DNA of 64,000 bases from an uncultured Chloracidobacterium sp. (GCA_964410495.1 CAYPGP010000001.1:61993-125992); one strand, 5' to 3'. Shown: positions 2,928 through 36,688, numbered from the stretch's first letter. Program-made: numbers and translations. The notes: generated by a model not told the origin, from the sequence alone.

Positions 2928-3257
2928 ATGAGAACTGCACTGATCCTCCTGCTTTTATGCATGGCATTCGGAGCCTGTGCGAGCAAGCCCGCAAATTCGC
3001 CCGTGCCCGGTGCACCGGGTGCCGCGATCAAAGACGGCGATTACAAAGGCTCGGGCAAGGTTACGAAGATCAATAACGAACTCGGTTCCGTTGAGATGGA
3101 TCATGGCGACATTCCGGGGCTGATGCCGGCGATGCGGATGGAGTTTTACGTGTCGGACAAGGCGATCCTCCAGGGCATCGCGGTCGGCGACAGCGTCGAT
3201 TTTACGATCCTGCACAAAGGCGGCACAGAGACGATAACCAAACTCACTAAGAAATAA
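2928..3257 (+). CDS. CusF-like periplasmic copper-binding protein
   Basis: Signal/lipobox-like N-terminus from ATG 2928 (MRTALILLLLCMAFGAC). GKVTKIN..GSVEMDHGDIPGLMPAMRMEFYV matches the CusF-type H..I..L..M-x-M-x-F core. Confidence 0.65.
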   Translation: MRTALILLLLCMAFGACASKPANSPVPGAPGAAIKDGDYKGSGKVTKINNELGSVEMDHGDIPGLMPAMRMEFYVSDKAILQGIAVGDSVDFTILHKGGTETITKLTKK

Positions 3258-4133
3258 ATGCCCATCGAATTTACCAAGTTTCACGGCTTCGGGAACGACT
3301 ATATCGTTATCGAAAGGTCGAAGATCGCTCCGGATGCCGACCTGAGCGAACTCGCGATCAAGATCTGCAACCGGCACACCGGCGTTGGCGGTGATGGGAT
3401 CGCGGTCCTTGTCGAGGCGTGGCACGAGGGCGAGCCCGGTTCGGCGGACGCGGCGGACTACTTTTGCGAGATCGTCAATCCCGACGGCAGCATCGCCGGG
3501 TTTTCGGGTAACGGAACTCGTTGCGCGGTGGCGTATCTGCATTATCACGGGCTCTGGAAAAAGCGTTCGCTCCGGCTCGAAACCCGCAGCGGGATCAAGA
3601 ATTACCATCTGCTCGAACGCAAGGGCAACGGTGAATTCTGGTTCGAGGCCGAGATCGGAAAGCCGAAATTTGCGAGTGACGAAGTACCGGTCGCGGGCGG
3701 TGAACGTCGGGATTCCGTGGTTGACGAGCCGATAACGATCGACAGCCAAACCCTTGCGTTTGCTGGCGTTAACGTCGGCAATCCGGTTGCCTGCGTGTTT
3801 GTCGACGACTTCGATTTCGACTGGCGTGAGATCGGGCGGAAGATGGAAGTTCATAGCGTTTTCCCCGAAAAGGCGAACATCGTTTTTGTCAAAATTCTCG
3901 ACGCGGAGAACATCGAGATCCGCATCTGGGAGCGTGCCGCGGGCGAAACCTCATCGTCAGGAACCTGCTCGAGCGGTGCCGCGGTCCTTTCGGCATTTAC
4001 CTCACGAACCGGCCGCAATGTGAACGTCCACGCCGAAGGCGGCACTACCCGCGTCTGGTGGCGAGAGGACGGCGAGATCATCATCAACGGTCGGGCCGAT
4101 CTGGCATTCAGCGGCCAGTGGTTACCGCAATAA
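3258..4133 (+). CDS. dapF: diaminopimelate epimerase
   Basis: FTKFHGFGNDYIVIE N-terminus and GNGTRC first active-site motif; ~290 aa two-domain length; ATG directly follows the upstream TAA. Confidence 0.85.
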   Translation: MPIEFTKFHGFGNDYIVIERSKIAPDADLSELAIKICNRHTGVGGDGIAVLVEAWHEGEPGSADAADYFCEIVNPDGSIAGFSGNGTRCAVAYLHYHGLWKKRSLRLETRSGIKNYHLLERKGNGEFWFEAEIGKPKFASDEVPVAGGERRDSVVDEPITIDSQTLAFAGVNVGNPVACVFVDDFDFDWREIGRKMEVHSVFPEKANIVFVKILDAENIEIRIWERAAGETSSSGTCSSGAAVLSAFTSRTGRNVNVHAEGGTTRVWWREDGEIIINGRADLAFSGQWLPQ

Positions 4134-7270: not shown

Positions 7271-7416
7271 GGATACAAACCTACTCGAAACCGCGAAAAA
7301 AATAAATGCATTTATGCCGACATTGCATGATTATGCTCAAATCGACACAAAATGCTTAAAATGCCGAGAATGTGTCCGGAAGTGAGCATGGTGCGTGAAT
7401 ACGCTAGAATATTAAC

Positions 7417-8505
7417 GTGACCGAGAAGTTTCATATTACCGGCATGAATCGTCGCGAGCTGGAGGAGTTTTTCCTCTCGATCGGCGAGCCGAAGTATCGT
7501 TCGATGCAGGTGTTTAAGGCCGTGCACGAGCGGCGTCTGCTGACGTTTGACGAGATAACGGATCTCCCGAAGAAGCTGCGGGCAAAGCTCGAAGAAACGG
7601 CGGAGATATCGCGTCTGACGGTTGAATCGCGTTATGTTTCGGTGGACGGGACGCGGCGGTATTTGATGAAAACCGCCGACGGAAAGCCCGTCGAGACGGT
7701 CTTCATCCCGACCGAAAACCGCGACACGATCTGTTTTTCTTCGCAATCGGGCTGTCCGCTCAAATGCGATTTTTGCCTAACGGCGAAGCTTGGCCTGTTA
7801 AAAAATCTGACCGTCGGCGAGATCGTCGAGCAGATAATCATTGTGCTAAATGACGTTTACGGCGTGGCAGGCGAGACTCCGCATGGGACGAACCTCGTCG
7901 GAATGGGGGCAGGTGAGCCGTTCCTGAATTTTGAGAACCTGATCGGCGCTCTGGAGATAATGGCGGATGAAGACGGCCTTTTCATCGTGCCGAACCGTGT
8001 GACGATCTCGACCGCCGGCATAGTGCCGCGGATCTACGATTTTGCGAAGCTCGAAAATCGCCCGCATCTCGCGATATCCCTTTCATCGCCACGGAACGAA
8101 CAGCGAAACGTCTTGATGCCGATCAACAAAAAATGGGATATCGGCGAGCTGATGACGGCGGCGAAGGAGTTTGAGGGCAGTTTGCGGCGTGGCGAACGGT
8201 TTACCTTCGAGTACGTAATGCTCGGCGGTGTCAACGACCGCGACGAGGATGCCCGCGAGCTGGTACGAGTTCTGGAAAGATATCAGTTAAATCGCGTAAA
8301 AATAAACCTCATCCCGCACAATGGTGCCGAACAGCTCGATTACAACGCATCGACGCCGGAACGGGTCGCGAGGTTCAAGAGCTTGCTGGAATCGAACGGT
8401 GTTGACGCCTACGTCAGGCAACCGCGTGGCCGGGATATCTACGCCGCTTGTGGGCAGCTTGCTGGTATGAGTAACGCGTTTACGCGTGACCGTGTCGCGG
8501 ATTGA
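7417..8505 (+). CDS. rlmN: 23S rRNA (adenine2503-C2)-methyltransferase (radical SAM)
   Basis: CPLKCDFC radical-SAM cluster motif, GMGAGEP, C-terminal IYAACGQL; GTG start at 7417 (alternative ATG at 7444). Confidence 0.85.
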   Translation: MTEKFHITGMNRRELEEFFLSIGEPKYRSMQVFKAVHERRLLTFDEITDLPKKLRAKLEETAEISRLTVESRYVSVDGTRRYLMKTADGKPVETVFIPTENRDTICFSSQSGCPLKCDFCLTAKLGLLKNLTVGEIVEQIIIVLNDVYGVAGETPHGTNLVGMGAGEPFLNFENLIGALEIMADEDGLFIVPNRVTISTAGIVPRIYDFAKLENRPHLAISLSSPRNEQRNVLMPINKKWDIGELMTAAKEFEGSLRRGERFTFEYVMLGGVNDRDEDARELVRVLERYQLNRVKINLIPHNGAEQLDYNASTPERVARFKSLLESNGVDAYVRQPRGRDIYAACGQLAGMSNAFTRDRVAD

Positions 8506-8511
8506 TGGCCT

Positions 8512-9114
8512 ATGTACGACTGGAGAACGATGAGCGACAAGGAACGCGCTCGAACCGTTTCGGGGCGTAAGGTGGATAGACAGCCCTGGCACGCACCACC
8601 TAAATTCGATCATGGCGGAAAAACAGAATTTCTGGTCACAGCTGCCTGCTACGAGCATAGGCATATTATCGGATTCTCAAATGAACGGCTACGGGAACTG
8701 GAGAAGGCGTTGATCGAGATCTGCGGTTCGCTTGAGGCGGTTCTCTTTGCGTGGTGTGTATTGCATAACCATTACCACATTTTGATCAAGACAGAGGATA
8801 TTCGCGAATTTCAGATCGAGCTTGGTAAGATCCACGGAAAGACGTCTTATCGATGGAATCGTGAAGAAGGGGCTGAGGGGCGAAAGGTTTGGTATAGAAG
8901 TTTCGAGCGAGCGATCAAAAGTCGGGGACATTTTTTTGCAACGGTGAATTACATTCACAATAATCCCGTGAAGCACGGGTACGTGAAGAGATGGCAGGAC
9001 TGGCCTTTTTCGAGCGCTGCTGAATATTTAGATCTAGTGGGACGCGAGAAAGCACTGGAAGTGTGGGAAAAATATCCGGTTCGCGACTACGGTGCTGAGT
9101 GGGATGTCTTCTAA
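8512..9114 (+). CDS. REP-associated tyrosine transposase (RAYT; IS200/IS605-type HUH Y1 family)
   Basis: HUH motif HNHYHIL and catalytic-Tyr motif VNYIHNNPVKHG; ~200-aa single domain; starts 6 nt after rlmN. Confidence 0.75.
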   Translation: MYDWRTMSDKERARTVSGRKVDRQPWHAPPKFDHGGKTEFLVTAACYEHRHIIGFSNERLRELEKALIEICGSLEAVLFAWCVLHNHYHILIKTEDIREFQIELGKIHGKTSYRWNREEGAEGRKVWYRSFERAIKSRGHFFATVNYIHNNPVKHGYVKRWQDWPFSSAAEYLDLVGREKALEVWEKYPVRDYGAEWDVF

Positions 9115-15874: not shown

Positions 15875-16981
15875 GTGCTTAAAGTTCTACTCATTGCCGG
15901 TGCGCGGCCGAATTTTATGAAGGTGGCGCCGATCTACGCTGAGATGAAGCGGCGTTCGTCTCATTTCACGCCGTTGATCGTGCATACTGGCCAGCATTAT
16001 GATGCGGCGATGTCGGATTCATTTTTCGAGGACCTTCGGATGCCGAAGCCGGATGTGCATCTGGGAGTAGGTTCGGGTTCGCACGCGGTGCAGACGGCGA
16101 AGATCATGACGGAGTTCGAGCCGGTCGTGCTGGAACATAAACCGGACTGGGTCTTGGTCGTGGGCGATGTGAATTCGACGATCGCTTGCGCCCTGGTTTG
16201 CGCAAAGCTCGGCGTAAAAGTTGCGCATGTCGAGGCGGGCCTGCGATCGCGTGACCGTGCGATGCCGGAGGAGATAAATCGCATCCTTACCGATTCGATC
16301 TCCGACCTGCTGCTGACGACATCTGAGGATGCCGACGAGAACCTGGCGGCGGAAGGAATTCCGGCAAATCGGGTGAAATTTGTCGGGAATGTGATGATCG
16401 ATTCGCTGCTCGAGCATCTGAAGATCGCTGAAGGCTCGACGGTTCGCGACGATCTTGGGATCGAGGCAGGGAAGTACGGTGTTGTAACGCTTCATCGCCC
16501 GTCGAATGTGGACGACAGGGATGTTTTTGAAGGGATCGTGGACGCGCTTGTCACCGTTTCAGAAAAGCTTCCGATCATTTTTCCGGTTCACCCGCGAACG
16601 CGTGGAAAGATCGCGGAGTTCGGGTTCGACGCGAAGATCGCGGCCTCGAACATTCGCTTGATCGAGCCGCTCGGATATCTGGATTTCATGCGGTTGTATA
16701 GCGGTGCTCGGTTGGTGTTGACGGATTCCGGCGGATTGCAGGAAGAAACGACTGTGCTGCACATTCCTTGCCTCACGCTGCGTCACAACACGGAACGGCC
16801 GGTGACGATCGAAATGGGGACGAATGTTCTCGTCGGTACGGACCCGGAAAAGATCAAGGTTGCCGCTGAAAATGCATTAGAGACTACACTCGACCGAACA
16901 GAAGCAAAGATCCCGCCGCTCTGGGATGGAAAAGCGGCGGGACGAATTTGTGACGAGTTGCTGAGATATTCCGTCGCGTGA
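15875..16981 (+). CDS. wecB: UDP-N-acetylglucosamine 2-epimerase (non-hydrolysing)
   Basis: LLIAGARPNFMKVAP, HVEAGLRS and TDSGGLQEE motifs. GTG 15875 preferred because the track's TTG 15842 lies inside the palindromic repeat. Confidence 0.8.
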   Translation: MLKVLLIAGARPNFMKVAPIYAEMKRRSSHFTPLIVHTGQHYDAAMSDSFFEDLRMPKPDVHLGVGSGSHAVQTAKIMTEFEPVVLEHKPDWVLVVGDVNSTIACALVCAKLGVKVAHVEAGLRSRDRAMPEEINRILTDSISDLLLTTSEDADENLAAEGIPANRVKFVGNVMIDSLLEHLKIAEGSTVRDDLGIEAGKYGVVTLHRPSNVDDRDVFEGIVDALVTVSEKLPIIFPVHPRTRGKIAEFGFDAKIAASNIRLIEPLGYLDFMRLYSGARLVLTDSGGLQEETTVLHIPCLTLRHNTERPVTIEMGTNVLVGTDPEKIKVAAENALETTLDRTEAKIPPLWDGKAAGRICDELLRYSVA

Positions 16982-16984
16982 TCG

Positions 16985-17398
16985 CTATTTGCCGGCCTCG
17001 ACCGGAAAACCGGCCGCTTTCCAGCCCTGGATGCCGCCTTTGAGGGCGAATACGTTAGCGATGCCTTTTTGATTCATCTGGAATGCCAAACTGGCACTCG
17101 AATTCTCCGACGGTCAGGCACAATAGACGATTATCTTCTTCCCCTTGGGGAGCGAGTCGAAGCGGTTTTCCGCTGATCCCTCTACTAAAACTGCCCCTTT
17201 GATGCGCTCTTGCCTAAAGGCTTCCGCCGACCGCGAATCGACAAAGACCGCGCTTCCGTCATCAAAGCTCTTTTTGGCTTCCTCGACCGTTACACGCGGC
17301 ACTTCGGAAGCGTTAGCGAATTTCTTTAGGTCGTCGTTATGGGCCAGGGCGCCGATCGCCGTAAAGGCCAAAACGTATAGGCAAAGTATAAATTTCAT
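16985..17398 (-). CDS. exported single-domain rhodanese, predicted selenoprotein (TGA 17114-17116 read as Sec)
   Basis: Track ORF ends ...KGKKIIVYCA at TGA. The same frame continues PSENSSASLAFQMNQKGIANVFALKGGIQGWKAAGFPVEAGK to TAG 16985-16987, completing the rhodanese fold. Signal peptide MKFILCLYVLAFTAIGALA. Confidence 0.7.
17081..17099 (-). promoter_or_regulatory. SECIS-like hairpin 14 nt downstream of UGA
   Basis: RNA GAGUGCC-AGUUU-GGCAUUC: 7-bp stem with one G-U pair and G-U in the apical loop. Confidence 0.55.
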
Positions 17399-17413
17399 AC
17401 TATCTCCTTTTTG

Positions 17414-17851
17414 TTATTGTTGCGGCGTGGAACTTAGAACGGGATAGCCCTGAGCCTTCCAGGCGTTCGGCCCGCCGACAAGTGCGTAAGTTCCGGGGAT
17501 GCCTTTCTGATTCATTTTGAGTGCCAAACTGGCACTCGTGTGTTCGCCTCCTCAGGAACAGTAGAGGACTATCTTTTTCCCCTTGGGCAGCTTTTCGAAC
17601 TCGGTTTCCGGGGCATTGTATTCGATCACGACGGCCCCGGGAAGATGTTCCACGTCATACGCGCCCTTACCGCGCGTATCAACGAAAACTACGCGGCCCG
17701 CATCGTATTCCTTCTTGGCGTCTTCGGCTGAAATACGCGGAACAGCCTGTTCATTGTCGTACTTTACGTACTCGATCACCGGAGCGTTCTGGCAGGCAAA
17801 AGCGAATGCCAGCAGCACCGATGAGAGGATAAAAAGAACCGCTTTCTTCAT
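17414..17851 (-). CDS. exported single-domain rhodanese, predicted selenoprotein (TGA 17552-17554 read as Sec)
   Basis: Track ORF ends ...KGKKIVLYCS at TGA. The same frame continues GGEHTSASLALKMNQKGIPGTYALVGGPNAWKAQGYPVLSSTPQQ to TAA 17414-17416. Signal peptide MKKAVLFILSSVLLAFAFA; ATG 17851 shares its A with the bcp stop codon. Confidence 0.7.
17519..17537 (-). promoter_or_regulatory. SECIS-like hairpin 14 nt downstream of UGA
   Basis: RNA GAGUGCC-AGUUU-GGCACUC: perfect 7-bp stem and 5-nt loop with G-U. Confidence 0.55.
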
Positions 17852-18309
17852 CACTTTTCTCCAAATGCCGCGAGCACTTCGTCAGCGTGTTTTGAAACAT
17901 CGACCTTGTCGAAGATCTTGACGATCTTGCCGTCGTCGATCAGGAACGTCTTTCGGAACGTGCCCATGTACTTCTTGCCGTACATGCTCTTTTCGCCCCA
18001 GACGCCGTAGTCTTCGACCACCTTTTTATCGACGTCGGCGAGCAGGTCGAACGGGAGCTGATACTTTGAGATGAATTTCTGATGGGCTTTTTCGCTGTCG
18101 GTGGATACGCCGAGGACGGTGATTCCCTTGGCGCGGTAAATTTCATCTGCATCGCGGAACGAGCAGGCTTCCTTCGTACAGCCGGGCGTGTCGTCTTTCG
18201 GATAAAAATACAGAGCCAGCCGCTTGCCTTTGAAATCGGAAAGCTTAACGGTGTTTCCGTTCTGGTCGGTTGAAGAAAAATCGGGTGCTTTGTCGCCTTC
18301 TTTTAGCAT
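17851..18309 (-). CDS. bcp: thioredoxin-dependent peroxiredoxin Bcp (PrxQ)
   Basis: FYPKDDTPGCTKEACSFRD with peroxidatic and resolving Cys; 152 aa. Confidence 0.85.
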   Translation of the reverse strand: MLKEGDKAPDFSSTDQNGNTVKLSDFKGKRLALYFYPKDDTPGCTKEACSFRDADEIYRAKGITVLGVSTDSEKAHQKFISKYQLPFDLLADVDKKVVEDYGVWGEKSMYGKKYMGTFRKTFLIDDGKIVKIFDKVDVSKHADEVLAAFGEK

Positions 18310-18376: not shown

Positions 18377-19378
18377 TCATTTCTTCTTGCCGAAATTCCA
18401 TTTCATGCCGGTCGTAAGAAGAAAATCGTTCTTCTTCGACGTACCGTTCGGGTCGTTATTATAACGGTCGCCCACGGCGATGAAGAAGCCAATCTTCTTT
18501 GTGACATCAATGCTGATGGTCGAGTCCATGATGAAGCGAAATTCGACGCGGTCTGTCACATTCTGAAAATACGTGACCGCATTCTGGATGCGCAGTTTGT
18601 CGTTGATGCGATGCTTGAAATTAAAGCCCGCGAGGCCTTCGGGCGTGTTTGCGTCCGAATTGGCCTGCCATGTGCGGTTCCAAGCTCCGCCCATGAAGAG
18701 TTCGAGTTCGGTCCTGTCATTCTTGATAGTACGATGCCCGAGTCCGCCGCCGGCAACCGAACGGAAGTCGAGACGACGAGGTTTGTCCCGTTCGAAATCG
18801 TATGAGACAAAGCCGAAGACTTTCTTGTTTAGAGTTCTATCGTATCTCGCACCGCCCCAGAATGCGTTTTGTGTCGTGACGTTCAGATTTGAACCGTGAT
18901 TGCTGTTCCAAAGGCTGCGGGCGTAGATGGTGATGCCATCCTGCGGACGCGATTTGGATGCTCGCAGGCCTGTGGTCATCGTAATGTTGTTGGAGTTTCC
19001 CGATGTATAGCTGAATCCGATATTTGCGTTGCCATCCCAGCCCGTGGCGACCGACTTCATCCGGCCGACAAAACCATTGCGCGAACTCTTTTTGATGACT
19101 GAGCCTACAGGCGGAGCAGCAGCGGCCGGCTTCGGAGCGGCCAGATTTGCAGCGGCGGCAGATCGAGCCAGCGATGCGGGGCCGACCTTGGCGATATGTT
19201 TTCGGTCGATCTTGAGCTTGCCGGCGTACTCGGTCTCAATCACCACCGCGTCCTCGCTTTCCTCGACGATCTTTCCGGAGAGCCGGTCGCCGTTTTTCAG
19301 CGTTAATTCCCCGGCAAACGCCGACGAAAAAATAGCCGCGATCAGGATGAAGGCCAGCAAGCGCGAAACGTGTCTCAT
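18377..19378 (-). CDS. DUF481 family outer-membrane beta-barrel protein
   Basis: Signal peptide; N-terminal LKNGDRLSGKIVEESEDAVVIETEYAGKLKIDRKHI module; C-terminal alternating beta-strand pattern. Confidence 0.65.
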   Translation of the reverse strand: MRHVSRLLAFILIAAIFSSAFAGELTLKNGDRLSGKIVEESEDAVVIETEYAGKLKIDRKHIAKVGPASLARSAAAANLAAPKPAAAAPPVGSVIKKSSRNGFVGRMKSVATGWDGNANIGFSYTSGNSNNITMTTGLRASKSRPQDGITIYARSLWNSNHGSNLNVTTQNAFWGGARYDRTLNKKVFGFVSYDFERDKPRRLDFRSVAGGGLGHRTIKNDRTELELFMGGAWNRTWQANSDANTPEGLAGFNFKHRINDKLRIQNAVTYFQNVTDRVEFRFIMDSTISIDVTKKIGFFIAVGDRYNNDPNGTSKKNDFLLTTGMKWNFGKKK

Positions 19379-20066: not shown

Positions 20067-21986
20067 TTACTCAATGGTCACTTCTACAAACTTATCGCTG
20101 ACGTTGCCGGCGAAATCGGTGATGAGAAATCCGATCGAGTAGTCGCCCGGTGCGACGTCCATGTTGCCGACGTACAGGTCTTCTTTATCGGTAATGTTCA
20201 GGATGTCGGCTGCATCGGTCGACGCGACCTCCTCTGCATCGCCGTTCTCGTCTATCGAGAGGTAAACGGGCCGGATAGAATCGCCTTTATCGAGCTTTAC
20301 TTCTCGCTGTCCCGACTTGGTTTCGATGATCGCGTAGACAAATTCACCGCTCGCCTCTTCGTCGTTGAAATCGATCACGAAATACAGCGTGATCCGGTTC
20401 CATTCCTTGCGGCCTTTATAGCGGACTTCGGCAGGAACTTCGACGTAATATATATCCTTCCCTTCGTCGATCTCAGCGAAATCCGTAATAGGGCAGATAA
20501 CTTCTTTCGTTCCGTCCCCGATCGAGAACCAGGAGCCGTCCCATTCTTCGATCAAGTTTCCTTTTTCGTCGGGTTCGGTCGGCACGGAACCAATGATGAT
20601 CGATTGGTCGTCATGTTCCTCGGCGATTATGAACGTCGCTTCCTCGATGTCGTCGGCGTTGACCTTTGCGCTTACCGTGACGACTCCGTCTTTGGCGAGG
20701 TTAGGTTTGCTTGATTGAACCGGCGTGATGACGGGCTTTGCTGTGTCACCGGCGAGGATGGTCGCGATGTCGGTAAGCATACCGTTCCACTTCATGCCCT
20801 GCTGGAACGGATGTTTGCTGTATCCGCTTTGAGAGAGTTGCTGCGGGTCATTCGGGAAATAGAGGCTCAAACCGGTCGCACGAGGATGCGCGGCACCGAA
20901 TACATTACTAACGACCGCGGCGGAGAGAGCGGCCATTACATCATCCGCCGCTTTTTTCGTCTCCGGGTCGGGGGCGAGTGTTTTGAGGTTTTGGACATAA
21001 TGGCCCATATCGAAAAACTCAGCCGCCGCCGGGCCCTGTCCACGCGAACCGAAATTCGCGGTCACAGAGCGGGCCCTTGCCGTTCTTATCAGTCCATCGC
21101 GTCCCGAGCGTACGATCGATTGATTCCGTACGGTCAGAGCAGCAAAGGCGGTATTCAGTGCGTCGATCTTCGATAGGTCAAGCAGGCTCAGCGTGATCGA
21201 AGCCTTTCGATTGGCCTCAGCTCCGGCGGTGTAAAAATTCTTGTAGCTTCGGGTAATGCCTTCGCCGAGAGCTTTTCCGTCCATCGTCGGATTCGCTGTC
21301 AGCCCGTTCATAATGGCGACGTAGTTCCAGCCGTCTCCGGGCTCAAGTTCCTCGGACGCGACCATGTATTTGGCGTACGGGCTCACGGTTCGAGCGACCT
21401 CGAAATTGGCCATGAGACACGCGTCGAAACCGATGAGTTCCAGCTTTCCGGTCGCCTTCGTTGCCCGTGCGAGAGCGGCGTTGAGCTCGGTCATGTTCAG
21501 GCTGTCGTCACCGTTTCCCTCGTCGTGAAGAATGCCCGGCCAGCCGCTGCCGTGATTGCCGAAAACGAGGGCGTATTTCTTGGCCGGAAAATCCTTAGCT
21601 GCGTTTTCGATAAAAGCCACGAGATTATTCGGGTCGCCCATGTTCAACTCGCCGAGGTCCGCCCCCTCTCTGAGTTTGCCCTTTTCGACGCGGAGGTATT
21701 TTGCCGTCGTCCAGTTCTTGATTCCGCCAATGTCGGCGTTCGTGTAGTTGTTGTCTTCATCGCCGCTGGCGTGTCGGTCGGCGAGAACGATGATATTTAC
21801 CGCGGCCGAGCTTCCTACCTCCGCCATCTCGAGAAGGTCGATCATCTGCGGAAGCTCAAGATCGTTATCCGCGTCCATGTAGAACATCAGAGTCCACTCG
21901 GCTTGAACGGGTGATTGGCTATATAGATTGCCAGGAAAAAGGAGAAACAGGACAAGGAGAATCGAAAAGAGTGATGGAAATCTCAT
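20067..21986 (-). CDS. secreted clostripain-like cysteine peptidase (family C11) with C-terminal beta-rich domains
   Basis: Signal peptide; MFYMDADNDLE, VLADRH, GNHGSGW (catalytic His) and GFDACLMA (catalytic Cys). Confidence 0.75.
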   Translation of the reverse strand: MRFPSLFSILLVLFLLFPGNLYSQSPVQAEWTLMFYMDADNDLELPQMIDLLEMAEVGSSAAVNIIVLADRHASGDEDNNYTNADIGGIKNWTTAKYLRVEKGKLREGADLGELNMGDPNNLVAFIENAAKDFPAKKYALVFGNHGSGWPGILHDEGNGDDSLNMTELNAALARATKATGKLELIGFDACLMANFEVARTVSPYAKYMVASEELEPGDGWNYVAIMNGLTANPTMDGKALGEGITRSYKNFYTAGAEANRKASITLSLLDLSKIDALNTAFAALTVRNQSIVRSGRDGLIRTARARSVTANFGSRGQGPAAAEFFDMGHYVQNLKTLAPDPETKKAADDVMAALSAAVVSNVFGAAHPRATGLSLYFPNDPQQLSQSGYSKHPFQQGMKWNGMLTDIATILAGDTAKPVITPVQSSKPNLAKDGVVTVSAKVNADDIEEATFIIAEEHDDQSIIIGSVPTEPDEKGNLIEEWDGSWFSIGDGTKEVICPITDFAEIDEGKDIYYVEVPAEVRYKGRKEWNRITLYFVIDFNDEEASGEFVYAIIETKSGQREVKLDKGDSIRPVYLSIDENGDAEEVASTDAADILNITDKEDLYVGNMDVAPGDYSIGFLITDFAGNVSDKFVEVTIE

Positions 21987-26321: not shown

Positions 26322-26404
26322 AAAAAATCCGAACTTTCATATAACAACGCTGGGCTGAACCGCTTAAACGCTGTGAAACGCTACATTTATTGTCGCGCCC
26401 TCTT

Positions 26405-26419
26405 TGGCATGGATTTTGA
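26405..26419 (+). promoter_or_regulatory. weak sigma-54-like -24/-12 element
   Basis: TGGCAT-ggatt-TTGA, 71 nt upstream of ATG 26490; correct spacing, but the -12 element is GA rather than GC. Confidence 0.2.
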
Positions 26420-26489
26420 CTCCAAAACCATTACTATCGAATGCATAGTAAGGGTAGTTAAGTTTTACTTACAACACAGGAGGAACAAG

Positions 26490-29400
26490 ATGAAGAGGTT
26501 TTTAAGCACCTTTTTGCTTATAATGCTTGGCTCAGTCGCCCTGCTTGCGCAGGGAACTACGGGTGGGCTGACCGGAACCGTATCGGGTCCGGACGGGCTA
26601 CTGCCGGGTGCGACCGTTGTCGTACGCGATACCGTCACAAGCAAAGAGGTAACAGTTACCACGAACTCCGAGGGCGTTTACCAGATAAACCAGCTCGAGT
26701 TTGGTACATACACGATCAGGATCACAGCCGCCGGCTTCAAGACCCTGGTCGCCAACGAACAGAAGATCGACGTCGGACGAACGGCAACCTTTAATGCCAC
26801 GCTCGAGGTCGGTGCTGTTTCCGCTGAGGTCGTCGTCACCGCCGGTGCTGACGTCATCACAGGCAATACGGCGCAGGTCAGCAGCACGATCAGTCCGCAG
26901 CAGATCATGTCGCTGCCGTTGATCACTCGAAGTCCTTTGGCTCTAACCCTGCTTCAGGCAGGTACTTCGTCGAACGGCGCTACCACTATCAATGGTATGC
27001 GTACGTCGATGACCAATATAACCAGAGACGGCATCAATATTCAGGATACTTTCATCCGATCCAATGCGACCGATTTCGTGCCGGGTCGCCCGTCGGTTGA
27101 CGATACCGCGGAATTCACGATCACCACCACGAACCAGGAAGCTGATCAGGGTTACGGCACCGCCCAGATCCGACTCGTGACGCCACGCGGCACGAAGGAC
27201 TTTCATGGGGCTCTTTTTGCCTACAACCGAAACAGTGGCTTTGCGGCTAACAACTTTTTCAATAACCGCACGCCAAACAATGCTGACGGCTCGCAGGCAG
27301 CGGCGGCGATCAAGCCTTCGTACCGCAATCGATGGCAGTACGGCGGCAAGGTTAGCGGTCCTATCTGGCTTCCGTATTTCGGTGAAGGTCCGCCTAAGAT
27401 CTGGAAAGACAAGGCTGTCTTCTTCTTCTCATATGAAAAGATCGAAGACCCGGTCAGCGGCGCGGCAACGCGTACCATCCTGACCCCGACGGCTCGTAAC
27501 GGAGCCTTCCGTTATCAGCGTACTAACTCCACAGACGTTACCCCGTTCTGCCCATCGCAGACCATCGGCAGCGTTTGTGAGGTCCCGAATATTCTGCAGT
27601 TTGCGGTTGGTCGCGGTCTCGCGGTCCCGTCGGCTGTGGATGCTGCGATCCAGGCCCGCATCTTGTCCCGTCTCCCGGCGCAGAGCAACTTCACCGGTGG
27701 AGATGGCGTTCTTATCAATGGTGTTTCGACACCGCTGAACACTGCAGGCTATCGTGTCCTGCGTCGCTCGGATCAAACGCGTGACCAGTATGCTTCGCGT
27801 TTCGACTTTGATTTCAACGACGCGAATTCGCTGCAGTTCATCTACAACTACAACAAAGAGGTCAACCTTCGTCCCGACATCGATACGAGCGGTTTCGATC
27901 CAATTCCCGACGGCGAGCAGTCGTCTGAGAATACACAGTACACGGCGGCCTACCGTCGCGTATTCAGCCCGAACTTTGTTAATGAGGTTCGCGGTGGACT
28001 TTTCAAATCAGAAGTTCCGTTCTATCGGTTAACGCCGAATCAGGACTTCGGCTTGACGGTCCCGCTGGTTTCGAATCCGGAGAACAATTTCCGCGATCAG
28101 GGTCGTTCGACGAAATCGTGGAACCTCCAATCGAACGGTGACTGGATCCTCGGCAAGCACAGCTTCAAGTTCGGCGGCCAGCTTCAGTTCTTTGAAGTAA
28201 CGCCATACAATGACGCCGGAATCATCCCGACCGTTACGGTCGGAACGGCTTCCGCATCGACGCCGGTGTTCACCCAGGCTCTTTTCAATGGCTTCGGTGG
28301 TATCAGCACCGCGCAGCTTGGAACGGCAAACGGAATGCTCGGATTGTTCGGCGGCATCGTCAACGCTGCCCAGCGAACCTTCACCGTTCCGGATATCGCG
28401 AGCGGATTTCAGCCCGTGCGCATCAATGAGCCATACAAACACGCTTCGCACTCGTTGTACGTTGCCGATCGATGGCAGGTCAGCAACAGCTTGACCCTTT
28501 CGCTTGGCGTTCGCTGGGAGTACTATCCGCCCCTCGTTATCGATTCGGGCGTTGCCCTCGAACCAGTCATCGAAGATCCGGATAACCCGCTGCCGTCGCT
28601 GCTTCGCACCAACGGACAGTACGTTCCGGTTGGAGCTAATGCCGGCCGCAAGAATGCTTACTACAAACCGCAGTACAACAACTTCGCGCCGAACCTCGGT
28701 TTTGCGTGGACACCGTCGTTCAGCGGCGGCCTCGGTAAGTGGCTGTTTGGCGACCGTTCGGTCATCCGCGCCGGTTACAGCCATGCATTCGGTAATGACT
28801 CGATCATCACGTCGATCCGCAATGCCGCTGCCAATAACGTCGGCCTTGCGGCGACCGCGTTCGGAATCTCGAACCAGAACGGACGGCTTTCGAATACTGC
28901 CAGCTTTGCGATCCCGGCGAATCCGACGTTCATTCCTCCGCCGCGTACTTACCTGCAGAACAACACCGCTCAGTTCGGCCCGTTCTTCGGTACGGTATTC
29001 GGCATTGATCCGAACATCGAAGTTACCCGTGTGAAGCAGTACAGTCTAGGAATTCAGCGCGAATTCTGGGGCAACACGGCGGTCGAGGTTCGTTACGTCG
29101 GAACCTCGAGCAACAACCTTGTCCGCACTATCGATTACAACCAGATCGACATTCGCGACAACGGATTTGCAGCCGACTTCCTTCGTGCACAGGCAAACTT
29201 CGCTCTGACGGGAAATGCTTTCTGTGCGACGGCTGGCTGTCAGGCCCTTCAGATATTCCAGAGCGGAGGTACACCAGGTGCCGGACGTCTTGTTGTTGGT
29301 ACGGGCGGTCTCGCTCTCGCCTCGTTCAACAATTCTCTGACGGCCGGAACTCCGGCTGACCTTGCTCTTACGTTTATCACGAGCAATCTGAACAACCATC

Positions 29401-30305
29401 CGACAGTTGCAAATCCCAGCCTCGTGCCTTTCGTCCGTCTGTTGCCGAACCCGGCATCGGGCGTGGTTAACCTGCTGCAGAACGGTGGTTTTTACGACTA
29501 CAACTCGCTGCAGACCGAAGTCCGCCGCCGCTTCTCGAACGGCCTGTATTTCCAGGCGAATTACACGTTCTCGAAGAACATCGGTGACGCTACGGCTTCG
29601 AACGGTTCACAGACGCTTGTCGAGCCCTACCTCGACAATCGCCAGCCTGAACTCGACCGTACGCGTGTCGACTTTGACCAGACGCATGCGTTCAAGTTCA
29701 ACGGTATCTATCAGCTTCCGTTCGGAAAGGGACGTACGTTCCTTAACCGCGGCGGCGTTGTAGATGCGATCCTTGGCGGATGGGAACTTTCGGGTACCGT
29801 TCAGTGGGATTCGGGCCAGCCGATCACGTTCCTTGATCCTCGCGGAACACTGAACCGTGCCGCCCGTGCGGGACGACAGACAGCCAACACCAACCTGAGC
29901 TACGATGATATCCGCGCTCTCCAGGGGATATTTGAGCAGAACGGTAATATCTACTGGATCAATCCGTCGATCATCTGCAGCAACGGTGCTGCTACGGCGG
30001 GTGTCGGTCAGCCGGCATGCCCGGGACAGGTTTTCTTCAATGTTCCGGCAGGCCAGACGGGTACGATGGGACGTGCGATCGCAAACGCTCCGTCGTTCTT
30101 CAATGCTGATGCCTCGATGATGAAGAATTTCCGCTTTACGGAAGATATGCGGTTGCAGTTCCGCGTTGAAGCTTTCAACGTGCTGAACAAGACCAACTTC
30201 TTCCAGGGAGCTGTTCTTCAGAACATCAACAGCACCTCGTTCGGTCAGATCACAAGTGCCGGTGCGGCTCGCCAGCTGCAGTTGGCTCTTCGGTTTGAGT
30301 TCTAG
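26490..30305 (+). CDS. TonB-dependent receptor with N-terminal carboxypeptidase-regulatory-like domain
   Basis: RBS AGGAGG then MKRFLSTFLLIMLGSVALLAQ signal peptide. GLTGTVSGPDG...ATVVV CarboxypepD_reg domain, a plug region, and a long barrel ending ...LALRFEF. Confidence 0.85.
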   Translation: MKRFLSTFLLIMLGSVALLAQGTTGGLTGTVSGPDGLLPGATVVVRDTVTSKEVTVTTNSEGVYQINQLEFGTYTIRITAAGFKTLVANEQKIDVGRTATFNATLEVGAVSAEVVVTAGADVITGNTAQVSSTISPQQIMSLPLITRSPLALTLLQAGTSSNGATTINGMRTSMTNITRDGINIQDTFIRSNATDFVPGRPSVDDTAEFTITTTNQEADQGYGTAQIRLVTPRGTKDFHGALFAYNRNSGFAANNFFNNRTPNNADGSQAAAAIKPSYRNRWQYGGKVSGPIWLPYFGEGPPKIWKDKAVFFFSYEKIEDPVSGAATRTILTPTARNGAFRYQRTNSTDVTPFCPSQTIGSVCEVPNILQFAVGRGLAVPSAVDAAIQARILSRLPAQSNFTGGDGVLINGVSTPLNTAGYRVLRRSDQTRDQYASRFDFDFNDANSLQFIYNYNKEVNLRPDIDTSGFDPIPDGEQSSENTQYTAAYRRVFSPNFVNEVRGGLFKSEVPFYRLTPNQDFGLTVPLVSNPENNFRDQGRSTKSWNLQSNGDWILGKHSFKFGGQLQFFEVTPYNDAGIIPTVTVGTASASTPVFTQALFNGFGGISTAQLGTANGMLGLFGGIVNAAQRTFTVPDIASGFQPVRINEPYKHASHSLYVADRWQVSNSLTLSLGVRWEYYPPLVIDSGVALEPVIEDPDNPLPSLLRTNGQYVPVGANAGRKNAYYKPQYNNFAPNLGFAWTPSFSGGLGKWLFGDRSVIRAGYSHAFGNDSIITSIRNAAANNVGLAATAFGISNQNGRLSNTASFAIPANPTFIPPPRTYLQNNTAQFGPFFGTVFGIDPNIEVTRVKQYSLGIQREFWGNTAVEVRYVGTSSNNLVRTIDYNQIDIRDNGFAADFLRAQANFALTGNAFCATAGCQALQIFQSGGTPGAGRLVVGTGGLALASFNNSLTAGTPADLALTFITSNLNNHPTVANPSLVPFVRLLPNPASGVVNLLQNGGFYDYNSLQTEVRRRFSNGLYFQANYTFSKNIGDATASNGSQTLVEPYLDNRQPELDRTRVDFDQTHAFKFNGIYQLPFGKGRTFLNRGGVVDAILGGWELSGTVQWDSGQPITFLDPRGTLNRAARAGRQTANTNLSYDDIRALQGIFEQNGNIYWINPSIICSNGAATAGVGQPACPGQVFFNVPAGQTGTMGRAIANAPSFFNADASMMKNFRFTEDMRLQFRVEAFNVLNKTNFFQGAVLQNINSTSFGQITSAGAARQLQLALRFEF

Positions 30306-30516: not shown

Positions 30517-31365
30517 ATGGAGTTCAAAATGAAAAGAGTCTTGATATTGGTCACCGCATTGGTGATCGGTGCCGCCGCCGTTAACGGTCAGAAACTAAAA
30601 GCAGAAGAAATTGTTGAGAAGCATCTTGCATCAGTGGCCGCGCCCGAAAAACGGGCTTCGATCAAGACGATGATAGCCTCGGGCGAAGTGCGAGTTGAAT
30701 TTGTAACACAAAAGACACAACCGGCCGTTGGTCGCTTCGTTCTCGCCTCAGAAGGAGCCAAACGCTTCTTCGGGATGGATTTGATTTCGGTGGACTATCC
30801 TCGAGAAGTGTTCACATTTGACGGTGCGAAAACGGACGTCGCGCTCATCAGGGCCGGAAACCGATCAATACTAGGAAATTTTATCCAGTCAAACAGCTCG
30901 CTGATATCCCAGGGATTTCTGACCGGGACTCTGATGACAGGTTGGGTGCTTTCGAATGCTGTTGAGCGTGGTATAAAAGTATCGGCTTCGGGCACCAAGA
31001 AGATAGATGGTAAAGAGACATATGTGCTGTCCGTTACGCCTAAAGGCGGAAGCGACCTGGACGTCACGATGTATTTTGATCAGGCAACGTTCCGACATTT
31101 ACGCACCGAGTATAAACGCACGGCTTCGGCCGCGATGGGAAGAACAATCGATGAATCCGCACGAAATCTCGAAACGCGGATAAAATTGACCGAAGATTTT
31201 TCGGATCATCAGGAGTTTGAAGGTGTCATGCTTCCCCGGAAATATAGGCTCCATTATTCGATATCGGGCCAGAACGGAACCACGGAGATATCGTGGGCCG
31301 GCGTTTTCACGGAATTTGCGTTTAACCAGAAGCTCGATCCCAGCAGCTTTGCTACCGGAAAGTAA
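30517..31365 (+). CDS. secreted hypothetical protein (LolA / lipoprotein-sorting-like fold suspected)
   Basis: Signal peptide MKRVLILVTALVIGAAAVNG (alternative ATG 30529); beta-rich; lies between the two receptor genes. Confidence 0.5.
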   Translation: MEFKMKRVLILVTALVIGAAAVNGQKLKAEEIVEKHLASVAAPEKRASIKTMIASGEVRVEFVTQKTQPAVGRFVLASEGAKRFFGMDLISVDYPREVFTFDGAKTDVALIRAGNRSILGNFIQSNSSLISQGFLTGTLMTGWVLSNAVERGIKVSASGTKKIDGKETYVLSVTPKGGSDLDVTMYFDQATFRHLRTEYKRTASAAMGRTIDESARNLETRIKLTEDFSDHQEFEGVMLPRKYRLHYSISGQNGTTEISWAGVFTEFAFNQKLDPSSFATGK

Positions 31366-31846: not shown

Positions 31847-34800
31847 ATGAGAAAGTTTACCAGCTTTACCATCGCGGTAATGGCCCTTATGTTGGCGGTT
31901 ACCGCGGTCATGGCTCAGACGACCGGCTCCCTTTCGGGAACGATCGTTGATCCAAATAAAGAACTCGTGGCGGGAGCCACGGTAGTCGTACAAAACGACA
32001 GTACAAAGGCTGAATTTACCGCAGTATCGAGCGGTGAAGGTTCTTTCCGCGTGCCTAACCTGGCTTCGGGAACCTACACCGCGACGATCACGGCAGGCGG
32101 TTTTAAGAAGACCATCGTTAAGGGCATCAAGGTTGACGTCGGTCTTTCGTCGTCGATCAATGTCCAGATGGAGATCGGCGCGGCAGCCGAAGAGGTCACG
32201 GTCACGGGAACCGGCGAATTGCTTCGCACGGAAAGCGCGACGGTCGGCACGACGCTCACGGGCCGCCAGATCACTGACATCCCGACTGCATCCCGCGATG
32301 CTCTCGACCTCGTCCTTGCGCTTCCCGGAACGGCAACGCCGGGACGCCCGCGAACCTCGACGGTCAATGGACTGCCGAAAGGTGCTTTGAATATCACCAT
32401 CGACGGCATCAACGTCCAGGACAACCTGCTCCGCTCGAGCGACGGTTTCTTCACTTATATTCGTCCACGCACGGACGCCATCGGCGAAGTGTCGACGTCG
32501 ATCTCGTCGCCCGGAGCTGAAAGCTCGGGTGAAGGCGCCGTCCAGATCAAGTTCGTAACGCAGAATGGCGGTAATCAGTACCGCGGCGGTGCTTATTGGT
32601 ACCATCGCGATCCTTCGCTCAACGCGAACTACTGGTTCTCAAACCGCGATCTGAACCCGCTTCCGGGACAGACCAAGGCACCGCAGACGGTGATGATCCT
32701 TAACCAGTTCGGAGCCAAATTGGGCGGCCCGATCTCGTTCCCGGGACTCTTCAGCGGAAAGGACAAGGCGTTCTTCTTCTTCAACTATGAAGAGTTCCGT
32801 CTTCCGGAGCGTTCACCGCTTCGTACGCGTACCATCTTGAGCCCTGAGGCGCAGAGCGGTATCTATCGCTTCAATGCAGCGGCAACCTACGTTCCTGCGG
32901 CGGGGTCGAATATCACCTGTGTACCTTCCGGCTCGGCTCAGGTTTGTTCATTTAACGTTCTGACTCGTGCCGCTTCGCTTGCTAACACAACGATGCCAGG
33001 TACCGTCGACCCAACCATCGGAGCACTGCTGACCTCGATCCGCGGTTCTCTGACCGGGTTGAACATTGTAAATACCGGCGACCCGAACCTTCAGCAGGTT
33101 TCCTTCCTCAATCTGGGATCGCAGGTACGCAAGTTTCCAACCATCCGTTTCGACTTCAATATCGGAAAGAACCACCACGTCGAGAACATCTGGAACTATC
33201 AGCAGTTCCGATCGAGTGTTGACTTCCTCAACGGCGTCGATCCGGTTTTCCCCGGCTTTCCGAATTTCGGCAGCCAGGATTCGAACCGCTTTTCAAACGC
33301 AACCGCGTGGCGCTGGAATATCAAGAACAACATCGTAAACGAAGCTCGCTACGGGATACTCGGTGGAACGTCGCTGTTCTTCCCACAGGTCAATGCCGGG
33401 CAGTTTGCCAATAATGGCGGACTCTACGCTCTGAACATCAGCGCAGCGGGTATCAGCAACGGATACATCACGACCAGCAGCTCACGCCGCAATTCGCCTG
33501 TGAAGCAGTTCAGCGACACCGTCAACTGGGTTTCCGGAAATCACGCTCTGTCGTTTGGTTTCAACTTTACCCAGATCAACCTTTGGAGCCGGGCAGGAAA
33601 TGCTGTTCCAACGGTGAGCTTTGGACTGAGCTCGACGCTCGAAGCTACCAACTATCAGGCCCTCGTCGGAGCACTTCCGGCGGCCAATCAGGGTGGAGCC
33701 GCAGCTCTTTGGGCGACACTTGCGGGCCGCGTCAGTTCGTTGAATGCCAACGGTATTCTTGAAGAAGAGACTGGCAGGATCAGGTTTAACGGAATCAGCA
33801 CCCAGCGTGCTATGCAGCGAGAGTATGGCTTCTTCGGCCAAGACACTTGGAAGGTTCGTCCGAATCTTACGCTCACACTTGGCCTTCGTTATGAGGTCCA
33901 GGGGCCGATCAATCCGGCAAACAACGTGTTCACGCTTGCCACCTATGAGTCGGTGTTTGGCGAATCGGGCGTCGGCAATCTCTTTAAGCCAGGAACCCTG
34001 GCCGGTGCTCCTACCGTTTACAACCCGATCACATCGGGAACTAGGATCTGGGATACGGATATGGACAATATCGCTCCCAGCCTGGGTGTTGCGTGGACAC
34101 CGAACTTTAAGAATTCGGTGCTGCGATTCCTCGGTGGCGAATCGGGCCAAAGCGTTTTCCGCGGTGGTTTCTCGCGTTCGTTTGTTCGTGAAGGAACAAA
34201 CACGTTCCTGAGCATCATCGGTTCAAATCCTGGTGCAACCATCGGTGCTACCCGAAATATTACGGGTACGCCGTTCTCGCTTCCGCTGGGAACGCTTCTA
34301 CGTTCGGGACCGATCGCTCCGCCGACGCTGCCCGCAACATTGACCTTCCCATACAACGGACCCGCAACCGAATCGGTCAACGCTTTCGATCCGAATTTGA
34401 AAACGGGGTATGTCGATTCGTGGTCGTTCGGCTACCAGCGTGAGCTGTCCTCGAACATGGCGATCGAGTTCCGTTATGTCGGTAACCGTGGTAAGGACCT
34501 TTGGCGTCAGTACAACATCAATGCTGAGCTCTCGATCCTCGAGAACGGCTTCTATGATGAGTTCAAGCTCGCACAGGCCAATCTGGCTGCCAACGTAGCT
34601 GCCGGCCGCGGTGCTAACTTCCGTTACTTTGGTGCGGGAACCGGTACGGCACCGCTTCCGATCATCATGGCCTACTTCAGCGGCTTAGCTCCAACGGCTG
34701 CTAACGCTTCGAACACAGCCAATTATTCGAACGCGTTCTTTGCGAATGCAACGTTCGTTAATACGCTTAATCCTTTCAGCCCTGCTCCGGTGACTTTTGC

Positions 34801-35821
34801 TGCCACGCTTGGCGGTACCGCGAACGCTTCGCTCTTTGAGCCGACGCGTATCTCGGCAGGCATTCCAGTGAACTTCTTCTACAACAACCCGAGCAAGAGG
34901 GGCGGCGGCGCATGGCTCATCGACAACTCGTCGAGGACCTGGTACGACGCATTCACCTTCGAGTTCCGTCGTCGTATGTCGAGAGGTTTACTGCTCCAGG
35001 CGAACTATACGTTCGGCAAGTCGATCGCTAACACCTATGCCAGCAGCTCGGTCGCGGCTGACCAGCCTGGATCGCTTCGCGATGGCAAGGATGTTCGACG
35101 CGGACTCTCGCCGTTCGATATCAAGCACGCTGCTAAGATGAACTTCATCTATGAGCTGCCGTTCGGACGCGGACAGTCGTTCCTTAGCGACTCTCCGGGC
35201 TGGGTCAACCAGATCGTAGGCGGATGGGGCTTTAACGGCAACATTCGTATGCAGAGCGGTTCGAACTTCAACCTCGGTAATGTCCAGCTCGTCGGCATCA
35301 CTGCCAAAGAGCTTCAGGACCTCGTCGGTATCTACCGCGGTGAAGCTGATGCCGCCGGCAACACAAGCCGCGACGTCTACATCTTCCCGCTTGAGATCCG
35401 CCAGAATACCTATCGTGCGTTCAACATCGCCCTTTCGGGAGGTTTGCCGGTGTATACACAGGGAACCCCGAGCGGTCGTTATATCGCACCGGCAGGTACC
35501 GGAAACTGTGCCCAGGCCTATTCGGGTCAGTGCGGTTTTCAGAATCTGGTACTCAAAGGCCCGGCGTTCTTCCGTTCCGACATATCGGTCGTGAAGAAAT
35601 TCCGATTTACCGAGCGGGTTAACATGGAACTTCGCGGTGAATTGCTTAATGCATTCAACAACATCAACTTCCTGGTTGGTGCTGCCGCTAATGATGTTAA
35701 CGGACTCGGCGGAACGGGTGCGACGACCTTTGGCCGCTACACCGCAGCCTATCAGGACACGTCGACCACCAACGATCCCGGTGGACGTCTTGTTCAGTGG
35801 GTCCTCAGGCTCAACTTCTAA
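31847..35821 (+). CDS. TonB-dependent receptor with N-terminal carboxypeptidase-regulatory-like domain (paralog of 26490-30305)
   Basis: RBS GAGGAGG; signal peptide; SLSGTIVDPN...ATVVV domain; barrel ending ...WVLRLNF. Confidence 0.85.
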   Translation: MRKFTSFTIAVMALMLAVTAVMAQTTGSLSGTIVDPNKELVAGATVVVQNDSTKAEFTAVSSGEGSFRVPNLASGTYTATITAGGFKKTIVKGIKVDVGLSSSINVQMEIGAAAEEVTVTGTGELLRTESATVGTTLTGRQITDIPTASRDALDLVLALPGTATPGRPRTSTVNGLPKGALNITIDGINVQDNLLRSSDGFFTYIRPRTDAIGEVSTSISSPGAESSGEGAVQIKFVTQNGGNQYRGGAYWYHRDPSLNANYWFSNRDLNPLPGQTKAPQTVMILNQFGAKLGGPISFPGLFSGKDKAFFFFNYEEFRLPERSPLRTRTILSPEAQSGIYRFNAAATYVPAAGSNITCVPSGSAQVCSFNVLTRAASLANTTMPGTVDPTIGALLTSIRGSLTGLNIVNTGDPNLQQVSFLNLGSQVRKFPTIRFDFNIGKNHHVENIWNYQQFRSSVDFLNGVDPVFPGFPNFGSQDSNRFSNATAWRWNIKNNIVNEARYGILGGTSLFFPQVNAGQFANNGGLYALNISAAGISNGYITTSSSRRNSPVKQFSDTVNWVSGNHALSFGFNFTQINLWSRAGNAVPTVSFGLSSTLEATNYQALVGALPAANQGGAAALWATLAGRVSSLNANGILEEETGRIRFNGISTQRAMQREYGFFGQDTWKVRPNLTLTLGLRYEVQGPINPANNVFTLATYESVFGESGVGNLFKPGTLAGAPTVYNPITSGTRIWDTDMDNIAPSLGVAWTPNFKNSVLRFLGGESGQSVFRGGFSRSFVREGTNTFLSIIGSNPGATIGATRNITGTPFSLPLGTLLRSGPIAPPTLPATLTFPYNGPATESVNAFDPNLKTGYVDSWSFGYQRELSSNMAIEFRYVGNRGKDLWRQYNINAELSILENGFYDEFKLAQANLAANVAAGRGANFRYFGAGTGTAPLPIIMAYFSGLAPTAANASNTANYSNAFFANATFVNTLNPFSPAPVTFAATLGGTANASLFEPTRISAGIPVNFFYNNPSKRGGGAWLIDNSSRTWYDAFTFEFRRRMSRGLLLQANYTFGKSIANTYASSSVAADQPGSLRDGKDVRRGLSPFDIKHAAKMNFIYELPFGRGQSFLSDSPGWVNQIVGGWGFNGNIRMQSGSNFNLGNVQLVGITAKELQDLVGIYRGEADAAGNTSRDVYIFPLEIRQNTYRAFNIALSGGLPVYTQGTPSGRYIAPAGTGNCAQAYSGQCGFQNLVLKGPAFFRSDISVVKKFRFTERVNMELRGELLNAFNNINFLVGAAANDVNGLGGTGATTFGRYTAAYQDTSTTNDPGGRLVQWVLRLNF

Positions 35822-36667: not shown

Positions 36668-36688
36668 GGCAGATTGGCGGAGAAAACA

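Follow-up and report, generated by a model that had tools for sequence, protein, structure and literature searches.

The bcp-rhd1-rhd2 locus

A 64,000-nt stretch of DNA from an uncultured Chloracidobacterium sp. (GCA_964410495.1 CAYPGP010000001.1:61993-125992), referred to here as the window, carries on its minus strand a peroxiredoxin gene (bcp) followed by two rhodanese genes (rhd1 and rhd2), each of which contains an in-frame TGA codon that we propose is read as selenocysteine (Sec) (Table 1). In rhd1, the open reading frame (ORF; 17854..17552) reads MKKAVLFILSSVLLAFAFACQ...LPKGKKIVLYCS and then meets the TGA at 17554-17552. A preliminary description of this DNA had stated that the same frame runs on beyond the TGA, and translation bore this out: 45 further codons (GGEHTSASLALKMNQKGIPGTYALVGGPNAWKAQGYPVLSSTPQQ) precede a TAA at 17416-17414. 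The start codon is the ATG at 17851-17849, with a GTG at 17854 as an alternative. When the TGA was read through, the Pfam Rhodanese family (PF00581; gathering threshold, 22.2 bits) was aligned with residues 41-133 over profile positions 1-101 of 102 (55.2 bits; E = 1e-14), i.e., as a full domain spanning the TGA. The stretch beyond the TGA was thus confirmed as completing the rhodanese fold. It was also correct that the ORF as listed holds an incomplete domain; since the Pfam alignment bridges the TGA, however, that ORF amounts to about two thirds of the domain and not, as first described, to half.

A second gene with matching features, rhd2, was absent from the preliminary description and lies directly downstream of rhd1. 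Its ATG (17398) is located 15 nt past the rhd1 stop, with GGAG in front, and the gene reads ...LPKGKKIIVYCA up to a TGA at 17116-17114 and then continues for 42 codons (PSENSSASLAFQMNQKGIANVFALKGGIQGWKAAGFPVEAGK), ending in a TAG at 16987-16985. Read through its TGA, rhd2 was aligned over the whole Pfam Rhodanese profile (positions 1-102 of 102; 60.6 bits; E = 2e-16). At the DNA level, rhd1 and rhd2 are widely divergent, yet a 17-nt block, CGAGTGCCAGTTTGGCA, is identical in the two. On the other side of rhd1, the TGA stop of bcp overlaps the rhd1 ATG (TGATG). Because of this overlap, and because rhd2 follows rhd1 so closely, the three genes were considered to form one operon. We put at roughly 0.86 the probability that bcp-rhd1-rhd2 is a three-gene operon with bcp as its first gene and that both rhodanese genes are selenoprotein genes in which UGA specifies Sec.

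Table 1. Positions of the genes and predicted elements of the locus
Feature	Coordinates	Strand	Details
bcp, AhpC/TSA-family (Bcp/PrxQ-type) peroxiredoxin, Cys form	17851..18309	-	Pfam PF00578, E = 4.8e-42
rhd1, complete selenoprotein coding sequence (predicted)	17414..17851	-	145 codons, Sec at codon 100
rhd1 signal peptide with probable lipobox Cys, MKKAVLFILSSVLLAFAFA-C20-Q	17792..17851	-	Probable; read by eye from the sequence
rhd1 predicted Sec codon UGA, in L-Y-C-S-U-G-G-E-H-T-S	17552..17554	-	TGA conserved; Cys at this column in homologs
rhd1 hairpin, GAGUGCCA-GUU-UGGCACUC	17519..17537	-	Perfect 8 bp, G first in loop; 14 nt past UGA
rhd2, second complete selenoprotein coding sequence (predicted)	16985..17398	-	137 codons, Sec at codon 95
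rhd2 probable type-I signal peptide, MKFILCLYVLAFTAIGALA followed by HNDD	17342..17398	-	Probable; read by eye from the sequence
rhd2 predicted Sec codon UGA, in V-Y-C-A-U-P-S-E-N-S-S	17114..17116	-	From the sequence and TGA conservation
rhd2 hairpin, GAGUGCCA / GUU / UGGCAUUC	17081..17099	-	14 nt past UGA; block shared with rhd1

Conservation of the TGA codons, the downstream frames and the hairpins

Related loci were gathered by a scan of species-representative genomes, which gave 80 loci, to which five earlier loci and the window were added. Copies of a C-x-[U/C] motif numbered 100 in 71 source sequences, the window itself and four near-identical assemblies being counted in, and the codon at the Sec column was TGA in 93 of these 100 copies and TGY in 7. 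Over the 45 nt starting at the UGA, 79 of the 93 TGA copies were distinct. The TGA form was present in metagenome-assembled genomes (MAGs) labelled Pyrinomonadaceae, Chloracidobacterium, Blastocatellia or Acidobacteriota and was also found in Nitrospiraceae, Desulfobaccales, Syntrophus, a "Deltaproteobacteria" MAG and Desulfosarcinaceae. When the search was repeated without requiring the upstream Cys, all 85 genuine copies kept, relative to U, a Y at -3, a C at -2, an E at +3 and an S at +6. A bcp homolog stood immediately upstream of the rhodanese gene at 58 of 64 acidobacterial loci. The two TGAs and the two hairpins of the window were unchanged in L087, a JGI metagenome contig with 96% DNA identity to it, and in a related species four independent assemblies showed the same synteny, with both TGAs, both tails and both hairpins present.

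A search of a large protein database returned 43 close homologs, 41 of which reach 68% coverage of the query at most, and this bore out the expectation that such a gene would be mis-called as truncated; all 10 of the short entries that were inspected end ...YCS, and the NCBI and JGI annotations call products of 100 and 94 residues. The two full-length close homologs (P0005 and P0007) read ...LILYCS-C-P[SA]EHTS and place a Cys exactly on the TGA column. A second search recovered about 29 full-length Cys-form relatives, in which Y99, C100, C102, E105 and S108 (P0005 numbering) were invariant; the equivalent of the lipobox-like Cys (C22 in the same numbering) was likewise invariant across 29 Cys-form homologs. 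A Cys aligned with the TGA, which had been proposed as one outcome to look for, was found in full-length homologs as well as in the 7 TGY gene copies.

At five loci (L007:2850, L009:2855, L014:2856, L015:2824 and L020:2824), a third rhodanese paralog was located between bcp and the two Sec copies. In this paralog, which reads YCSCATEGTS or YCACNGEGTS, a TGY Cys codon occupies the Sec column and the hairpin is degraded, so that Sec and Cys versions coexist in one operon. A different arrangement was seen in the Syntrophus MAG (L072), in which predicted Sec rhodaneses at 1231 (YCDU) and 3268 (YCKU) are about 2 kb apart, not in tandem and not accompanied by bcp.

The frame beyond the TGA was open for 38 to 58 further codons in all 93 TGA genes. 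In comparisons of the window with its orthologs, the proportion of synonymous differences (pS) in this tail was 0.34 to 0.81 and that of nonsynonymous differences (pN) was 0.06 to 0.18, giving pN/pS ratios of about 0.12 to 0.22; between L087 and the window, the differences in the rhd1 tail were mainly synonymous and at third positions. By this measure of sequence divergence, the tail past the TGA is under purifying selection. The true terminators of the 93 Sec-rhodanese genes were TAA in 42, TAG in 40 and TGA in 11 (12%), compared to 11 TGA terminators among 30 well-supported ordinary genes of the window (37%). The scarcity of TGA terminators in the Sec-rhodanese genes may mean that a second UGA in the vicinity of the putative selenocysteine insertion sequence (SECIS) is avoided.

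The perfect hairpin that had been reported to begin 14 nt past the rhd1 UGA was recovered as an 8-bp stem at 17537-17519. That of rhd2 is near-identical and in the same register, with one G-C pair changed to G-U. Pairing was tested in an ungapped alignment of the 79 distinct 45-nt sequences, with columns 18-25 set against columns 29-36. Helix cells were paired in 89.9% of cases, versus 24.7 to 48.9% when the 3' partners were slid by 1 to 3 columns, and none of 500 shuffles matched the observed pairing. Compensatory changes were observed at U21-A33 (to C-G in seven sequences), at G18-C36 (to C-G or A-U in three) and at C23-G31 (to U-A in one). In each of the 81 distinct 48-mers tabulated for the TGA form, the loop began with G, the variants being GUU, GUC, GGC, GUG, GGG and GGU. 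The seven Cys-form genes, on the other hand, all had 1 to 4 stem mismatches, and five of the seven lacked the loop G. Judged by these features, the hairpin behaves as is expected of a bacterial SECIS. A hairpin within the coding sequence near the UGA and a G in the apical loop are the consensus features of bacterial SECIS elements that Zhang and Gladyshev reportedly set out in 2005. Like the Escherichia coli fdhF-type SECIS, the hairpin lies inside the coding sequence at a short fixed distance past the UGA and has a G-containing apical loop; unlike it, the loop is very small (GUU, GUC or GGC), and the sequence is unrelated.

Family placement and the predicted position of Sec

The best NCBIfam match of both rhd1 and rhd2 was NF041203 ("rhodanese_LYCAU, rhodanese-related (seleno)protein"). 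Reviews catalogue a CxU rhodanese selenoprotein class that is tied to this model and was predicted by Zhang & Gladyshev 2005, so that the statement that rhodanese selenoproteins had been predicted before was confirmed in the literature; the class is experimentally uncharacterised, and both reviews place it among the prediction-only families. With U replaced by C for scoring, rhd1 gave 79.3 bits (profile positions 13-123 of 126) and rhd2 gave 93.5 bits (positions 12-125), both under the 115 bits that the curated cut-off demands. Scores of 76 to 97 bits were obtained for P0005 (Cys form) and for three further Sec copies from acidobacteria. Positive controls from Desulfobacterota and Nitrospirota (L067, L068, L070, L072, L076 and L083) reached 137 to 173 bits and were members, and the L072 copy at 3268 (YCKU) scored 164 bits. 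From the sub-cut-off scores of the acidobacterial copies set against those of the members, it follows that the window genes belong to a Blastocatellia-type sister clade of the curated NF041203 family. The motif that characterizes NF041203, [LV]-Y-C-[AS]-U in a single-domain rhodanese, is present as LYCSU in rhd1 and VYCAU in rhd2. Moreover, in both groups an N-terminal signal-like segment precedes one rhodanese domain (about 130 residues), and both have the extended motif [LV]-Y-C-[AS]-U-x-x-E-x-[TS]-S and a hairpin with G first in the loop in the same register, the hairpin alignment having taken in the Desulfobacterota and Nitrospirota copies. They differ in genomic context, since the acidobacterial copies follow bcp at the 58 of 64 loci given above whereas the NF041203-positive loci never do, and at many acidobacterial loci the rhodanese gene is tandemly duplicated (1 to 3 copies per locus), sometimes with an extra Cys paralog, which was not seen at the NF041203-positive loci.

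The canonical single-domain sulfurtransferases GlpE and PspE of E. coli, the latter of which is periplasmic, agree with the window proteins in some respects. In Foldseek comparisons the rhodanese fold was shared, as was a catalytic loop placed after a hydrophobic strand that ends in an aromatic residue and Cys. In contrast, the loop-plus-helix segment is 2 residues longer here than in relatives of canonical length, counting from the first Cys, a second chalcogen (Sec or Cys) is found at +2 and a Glu, also invariant, at +5, and the NCBIfam GlpE model, whose cut-off is 102 bits, scored the window proteins at 27.5 and 35.5 bits.

It had been suggested that U occupies the position of the catalytic Cys in a loop of the canonical Cys-x5-Ser length. 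This was favored by ungapped alignments to 6mxv and 1yt8, which set U on the catalytic Cys, whereas the structural comparisons pointed the other way. An AlphaFold2 model built on the natural Cys homolog P0005 (predicted local distance difference test score, 87.7) has a central strand at K95-Y99, a loop C100-S-C102-P-S-E105 and a helix from H106 to 117. The best structural neighbors of this model in Foldseek were BH2092 (root mean square deviation, 1.6 Å) and 3tp9 (1.8 Å), and both alignments set the "YC" of the neighbor on the first Cys. With relatives of canonical loop length, YC likewise aligned with the first Cys, and a 2-residue gap was needed. BH2092 (PDB 3nhv, 3o3w) resembles the window proteins in having 19 residues from YC to the conserved post-helix Gly and in carrying, within its loop (YCWGPAC), a second Cys, which is located at +5 and not at +2; identity to BH2092 and to the 3tp9 rhodanese domain is only 21 to 24%, and neither has Sec. 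Both are structural-genomics entries, and we know of no function assigned to either. The alignments thus conflict as to which residue, U or the Cys before it, takes the canonical catalytic position. On the strength of the model, its structural neighbors and the relatives of canonical loop length, we lean toward a geometry in which the canonical Cys still directly follows the central beta-strand and Sec comes at +2 in an expanded loop, 2 residues longer than in those relatives.

The invariant core of the family is Y-C-x-U-x-x-E-x-x-S. Because the Cys and the Sec are 2 residues apart in either alignment and both invariant, the sequences suggest that the pair may be a couple of the selenenylsulfide or sulfane-relay type. 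A classical thiosulfate-binding loop would be argued against by the invariant Glu, an acidic residue that would be atypical for binding of the thiosulfate anion.

Proposed recoding, neighboring genes and possible function

Several points weigh against the selenoprotein reading, among them the sub-cut-off NF041203 scores, the prediction-only standing of the CxU class and the conflicting alignments of the active site described above. ARAGORN found no tRNAs, and hence no tRNA-Sec, in the 64-kb window and 60 fetched loci; Pfam and NCBIfam scans of 28 of the larger window ORFs and of the locus proteins gave no selA, selB or selD, and neither these genes nor tRNA-Sec were found in the 60 fetched loci. 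Acidobacteria are recorded as having selenoproteins, a trait given at the phylum level only, and searches of the literature, of BSepDB and of the Secmarker supplements gave no selenoprotein report for Pyrinomonadaceae, Blastocatellia or Chloracidobacterium. With respect to the hairpin, Rfam searches of the whole window (gathering threshold) and of 16950-17600 (E <= 10) matched no SECIS or other family, and in this, too, the hairpin differs from the fdhF-type SECIS. The single-sequence folding z scores were weak and not significant (-1.36 for rhd1, 66 nt, and -1.05) and were not counted as evidence, and conservation of the hairpin is partly confounded with that of the peptide S-A-S-L-A, which the stem encodes.

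The possibility was considered that the TGA is a genuine stop and that each gene is a pseudogene or encodes an N-terminal fragment of about 99 residues, with the downstream frame untranslated. Gene callers agree on such products, as seen in the short database entries and in the annotated proteins, and Sec machinery was not demonstrated in the window and fetched loci, to which the searches were confined. However, the active-site loop would be absent from the fragment, as would one helix and the fold's last strand. The frame beyond the TGA is open in 93 of 93 genes and under purifying selection, the hairpin shows covariation and is a specific feature of the TGA forms, the Cys homologs are full length, and both paralogs retain the feature across dozens of species. 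Pseudogene formation or truncation is effectively refuted by these comparative data, and we regard a genuine stop as very improbable. An even smaller chance, close to nil, was given to a sequencing or assembly error for TGC or TGT, or to UGA being read as sense throughout the genome, for which nothing speaks beyond the a priori possibility. Both TGAs recur in five further independent assemblies (L087 and the four of the related species), TGA ends 11 of the 30 well-supported window genes with no continuous protein in the frames downstream, and a scan of the whole window gave no coherent in-frame-TGA gene beyond the two rhodaneses. Error and genome-wide reassignment were therefore excluded by the independent assemblies and by the normal TGA stops of the window. 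The scan also returned 7408-9114 as a read-through candidate, which was rejected as two adjacent genes: an ORF at 7417-8505 (+), which by the look of its sequence we take to be RlmN-like, ends in TGA, and a 200-residue IS200-like Y1 transposase ORF (PF01797) follows in the same frame at 8512-9114 (+).

A minor alternative is that the UGA is indeed recoded via the hairpin but as Cys or another standard amino acid, by a selC* tRNA(Cys)UCA, perhaps with a SelB paralog, or by an allo-tRNA. Such tRNAs are documented: selC* tRNA(Cys)UCA occurs in delta-proteobacteria, Nitrospirae and other lineages and is followed by a second selB copy in two delta-proteobacterial subgroups, and suppressor-like allo-tRNAs occur in Acidobacteria (Mukai et al.; PMC5389517). 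Cys is also tolerated at the site, as the 7 TGY copies and the approximately 29 Cys-form homologs show. On the other hand, selC* was not reported from Acidobacteria in that study, and the genomes with selC* also had complete Sec systems (PMC5389517). Moreover, keeping TGA and a SECIS in 93 copies for the insertion of Cys would bring no obvious gain over plain TGY, and the Cys paralogs that stand beside TGA copies at the five loci named above indicate that the two forms are not equivalent. We consider insertion of a standard amino acid unlikely, if somewhat less so than a genuine stop. Together, the conserved TGA, the Cys homologs, the selected tail, the covarying and TGA-specific hairpin and the short database homologs support the core reading of rhd1 and rhd2 as selenoprotein genes.

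Elsewhere in the window, a gene for a DUF481 protein (18377-19378, -) and one for a clostripain-family C11 peptidase (20067-21986, -) are located upstream of bcp. Homologs were found upstream of bcp in 26 (DUF481) and 9 (C11) related loci, numbers for which short flanks limit detection. Two ORFs of about 1,300 residues (26373-30305 and 31847-35821, +), with CarboxypepD_reg and OMP_b-brl_4 domains, resemble TonB-dependent-receptor-like outer-membrane proteins, and a 282-residue ORF without a Pfam match (30517-31365) is found between them. Three consecutive ORFs (38180-41796, +) of 364, 353 and 484 residues, the last two of which overlap by 4 nt, gave no NCBIfam match and precede a MoxR-type AAA ATPase (42603-43556) and a 428-residue ORF (43553-44839) whose product resembles ankyrin-type effector repeats at its C terminus; the three ORFs and the MoxR AAA may constitute an uncharacterised MoxR-associated module. 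Four ORFs of 233 to 299 residues (35942-38141, +, and 2955-3854, -) had no Pfam match at E <= 0.001.

If UGA is read as Sec in rhd1 and rhd2, the ribosome would meet it at codon 100 or codon 95, respectively, and, by analogy with the bacterial SelB/SECIS mechanism, SelB-GTP-Sec-tRNA(Sec) tethered to the hairpin 14 nt downstream would insert Sec in place of termination. The predicted products would be single-domain rhodaneses of 145 (rhd1) and 137 (rhd2) residues. Their signal peptides suggest export, with the rhd1 product as a probable lipoprotein and the rhd2 product as a putative soluble periplasmic protein. The Cys/Sec pair would act as a redox or sulfane-transfer couple, via a selenenylsulfide or Se-S-S(n) intermediate, and the Cys/Sec rhodaneses are probably not plain thiosulfate:cyanide sulfurtransferases. 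Since the linkage to the peroxiredoxin is conserved, a role in oxidative or sulfur stress of the envelope is suggested. A more far-reaching proposal, which we advance tentatively and regard as doubtful in its entirety, is that the bcp-rhd(Sec) operon of Blastocatellia/Pyrinomonadaceae represents a distinct, uncurated family of exported rhodaneses whose expanded loop would hold a selenenylsulfide redox center made of the invariant Cys-x-Sec pair and the invariant Glu, serving not as a sulfurtransferase but as a selenium-based detoxifier of peroxide, sulfenate or sulfane sulfur in the envelope, and occurring widely and in multiple copies among the abundant Acidobacteria of soil and wastewater.

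What is new here is a clade, mis-annotated in a systematic way, within a class already known from computational prediction; the window has it as two tandem genes of a peroxiredoxin operon. In every assembly or entry examined, the genes are called as half-domain fragments of about 94 to 100 residues, and this mis-annotation spans the gene-bearing species-representative MAGs from Pyrinomonadaceae, those labelled Chloracidobacterium and others of Blastocatellia type. The curated NCBI selenoprotein model misses this clade, since its cut-off was reached by none of the acidobacterial copies tested, and a hidden Markov model that takes it in would correct many database entries. The finding also indicates that Sec is used in a major soil and wastewater lineage of Acidobacteria, often in two adjacent paralogs. 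With its invariant Cys-x-Sec-x-x-Glu loop, the rhodanese scaffold would carry an active site of an uncharacterised kind, and the tie of a CxU rhodanese of unassigned function to a peroxiredoxin operon provides a concrete functional hypothesis.

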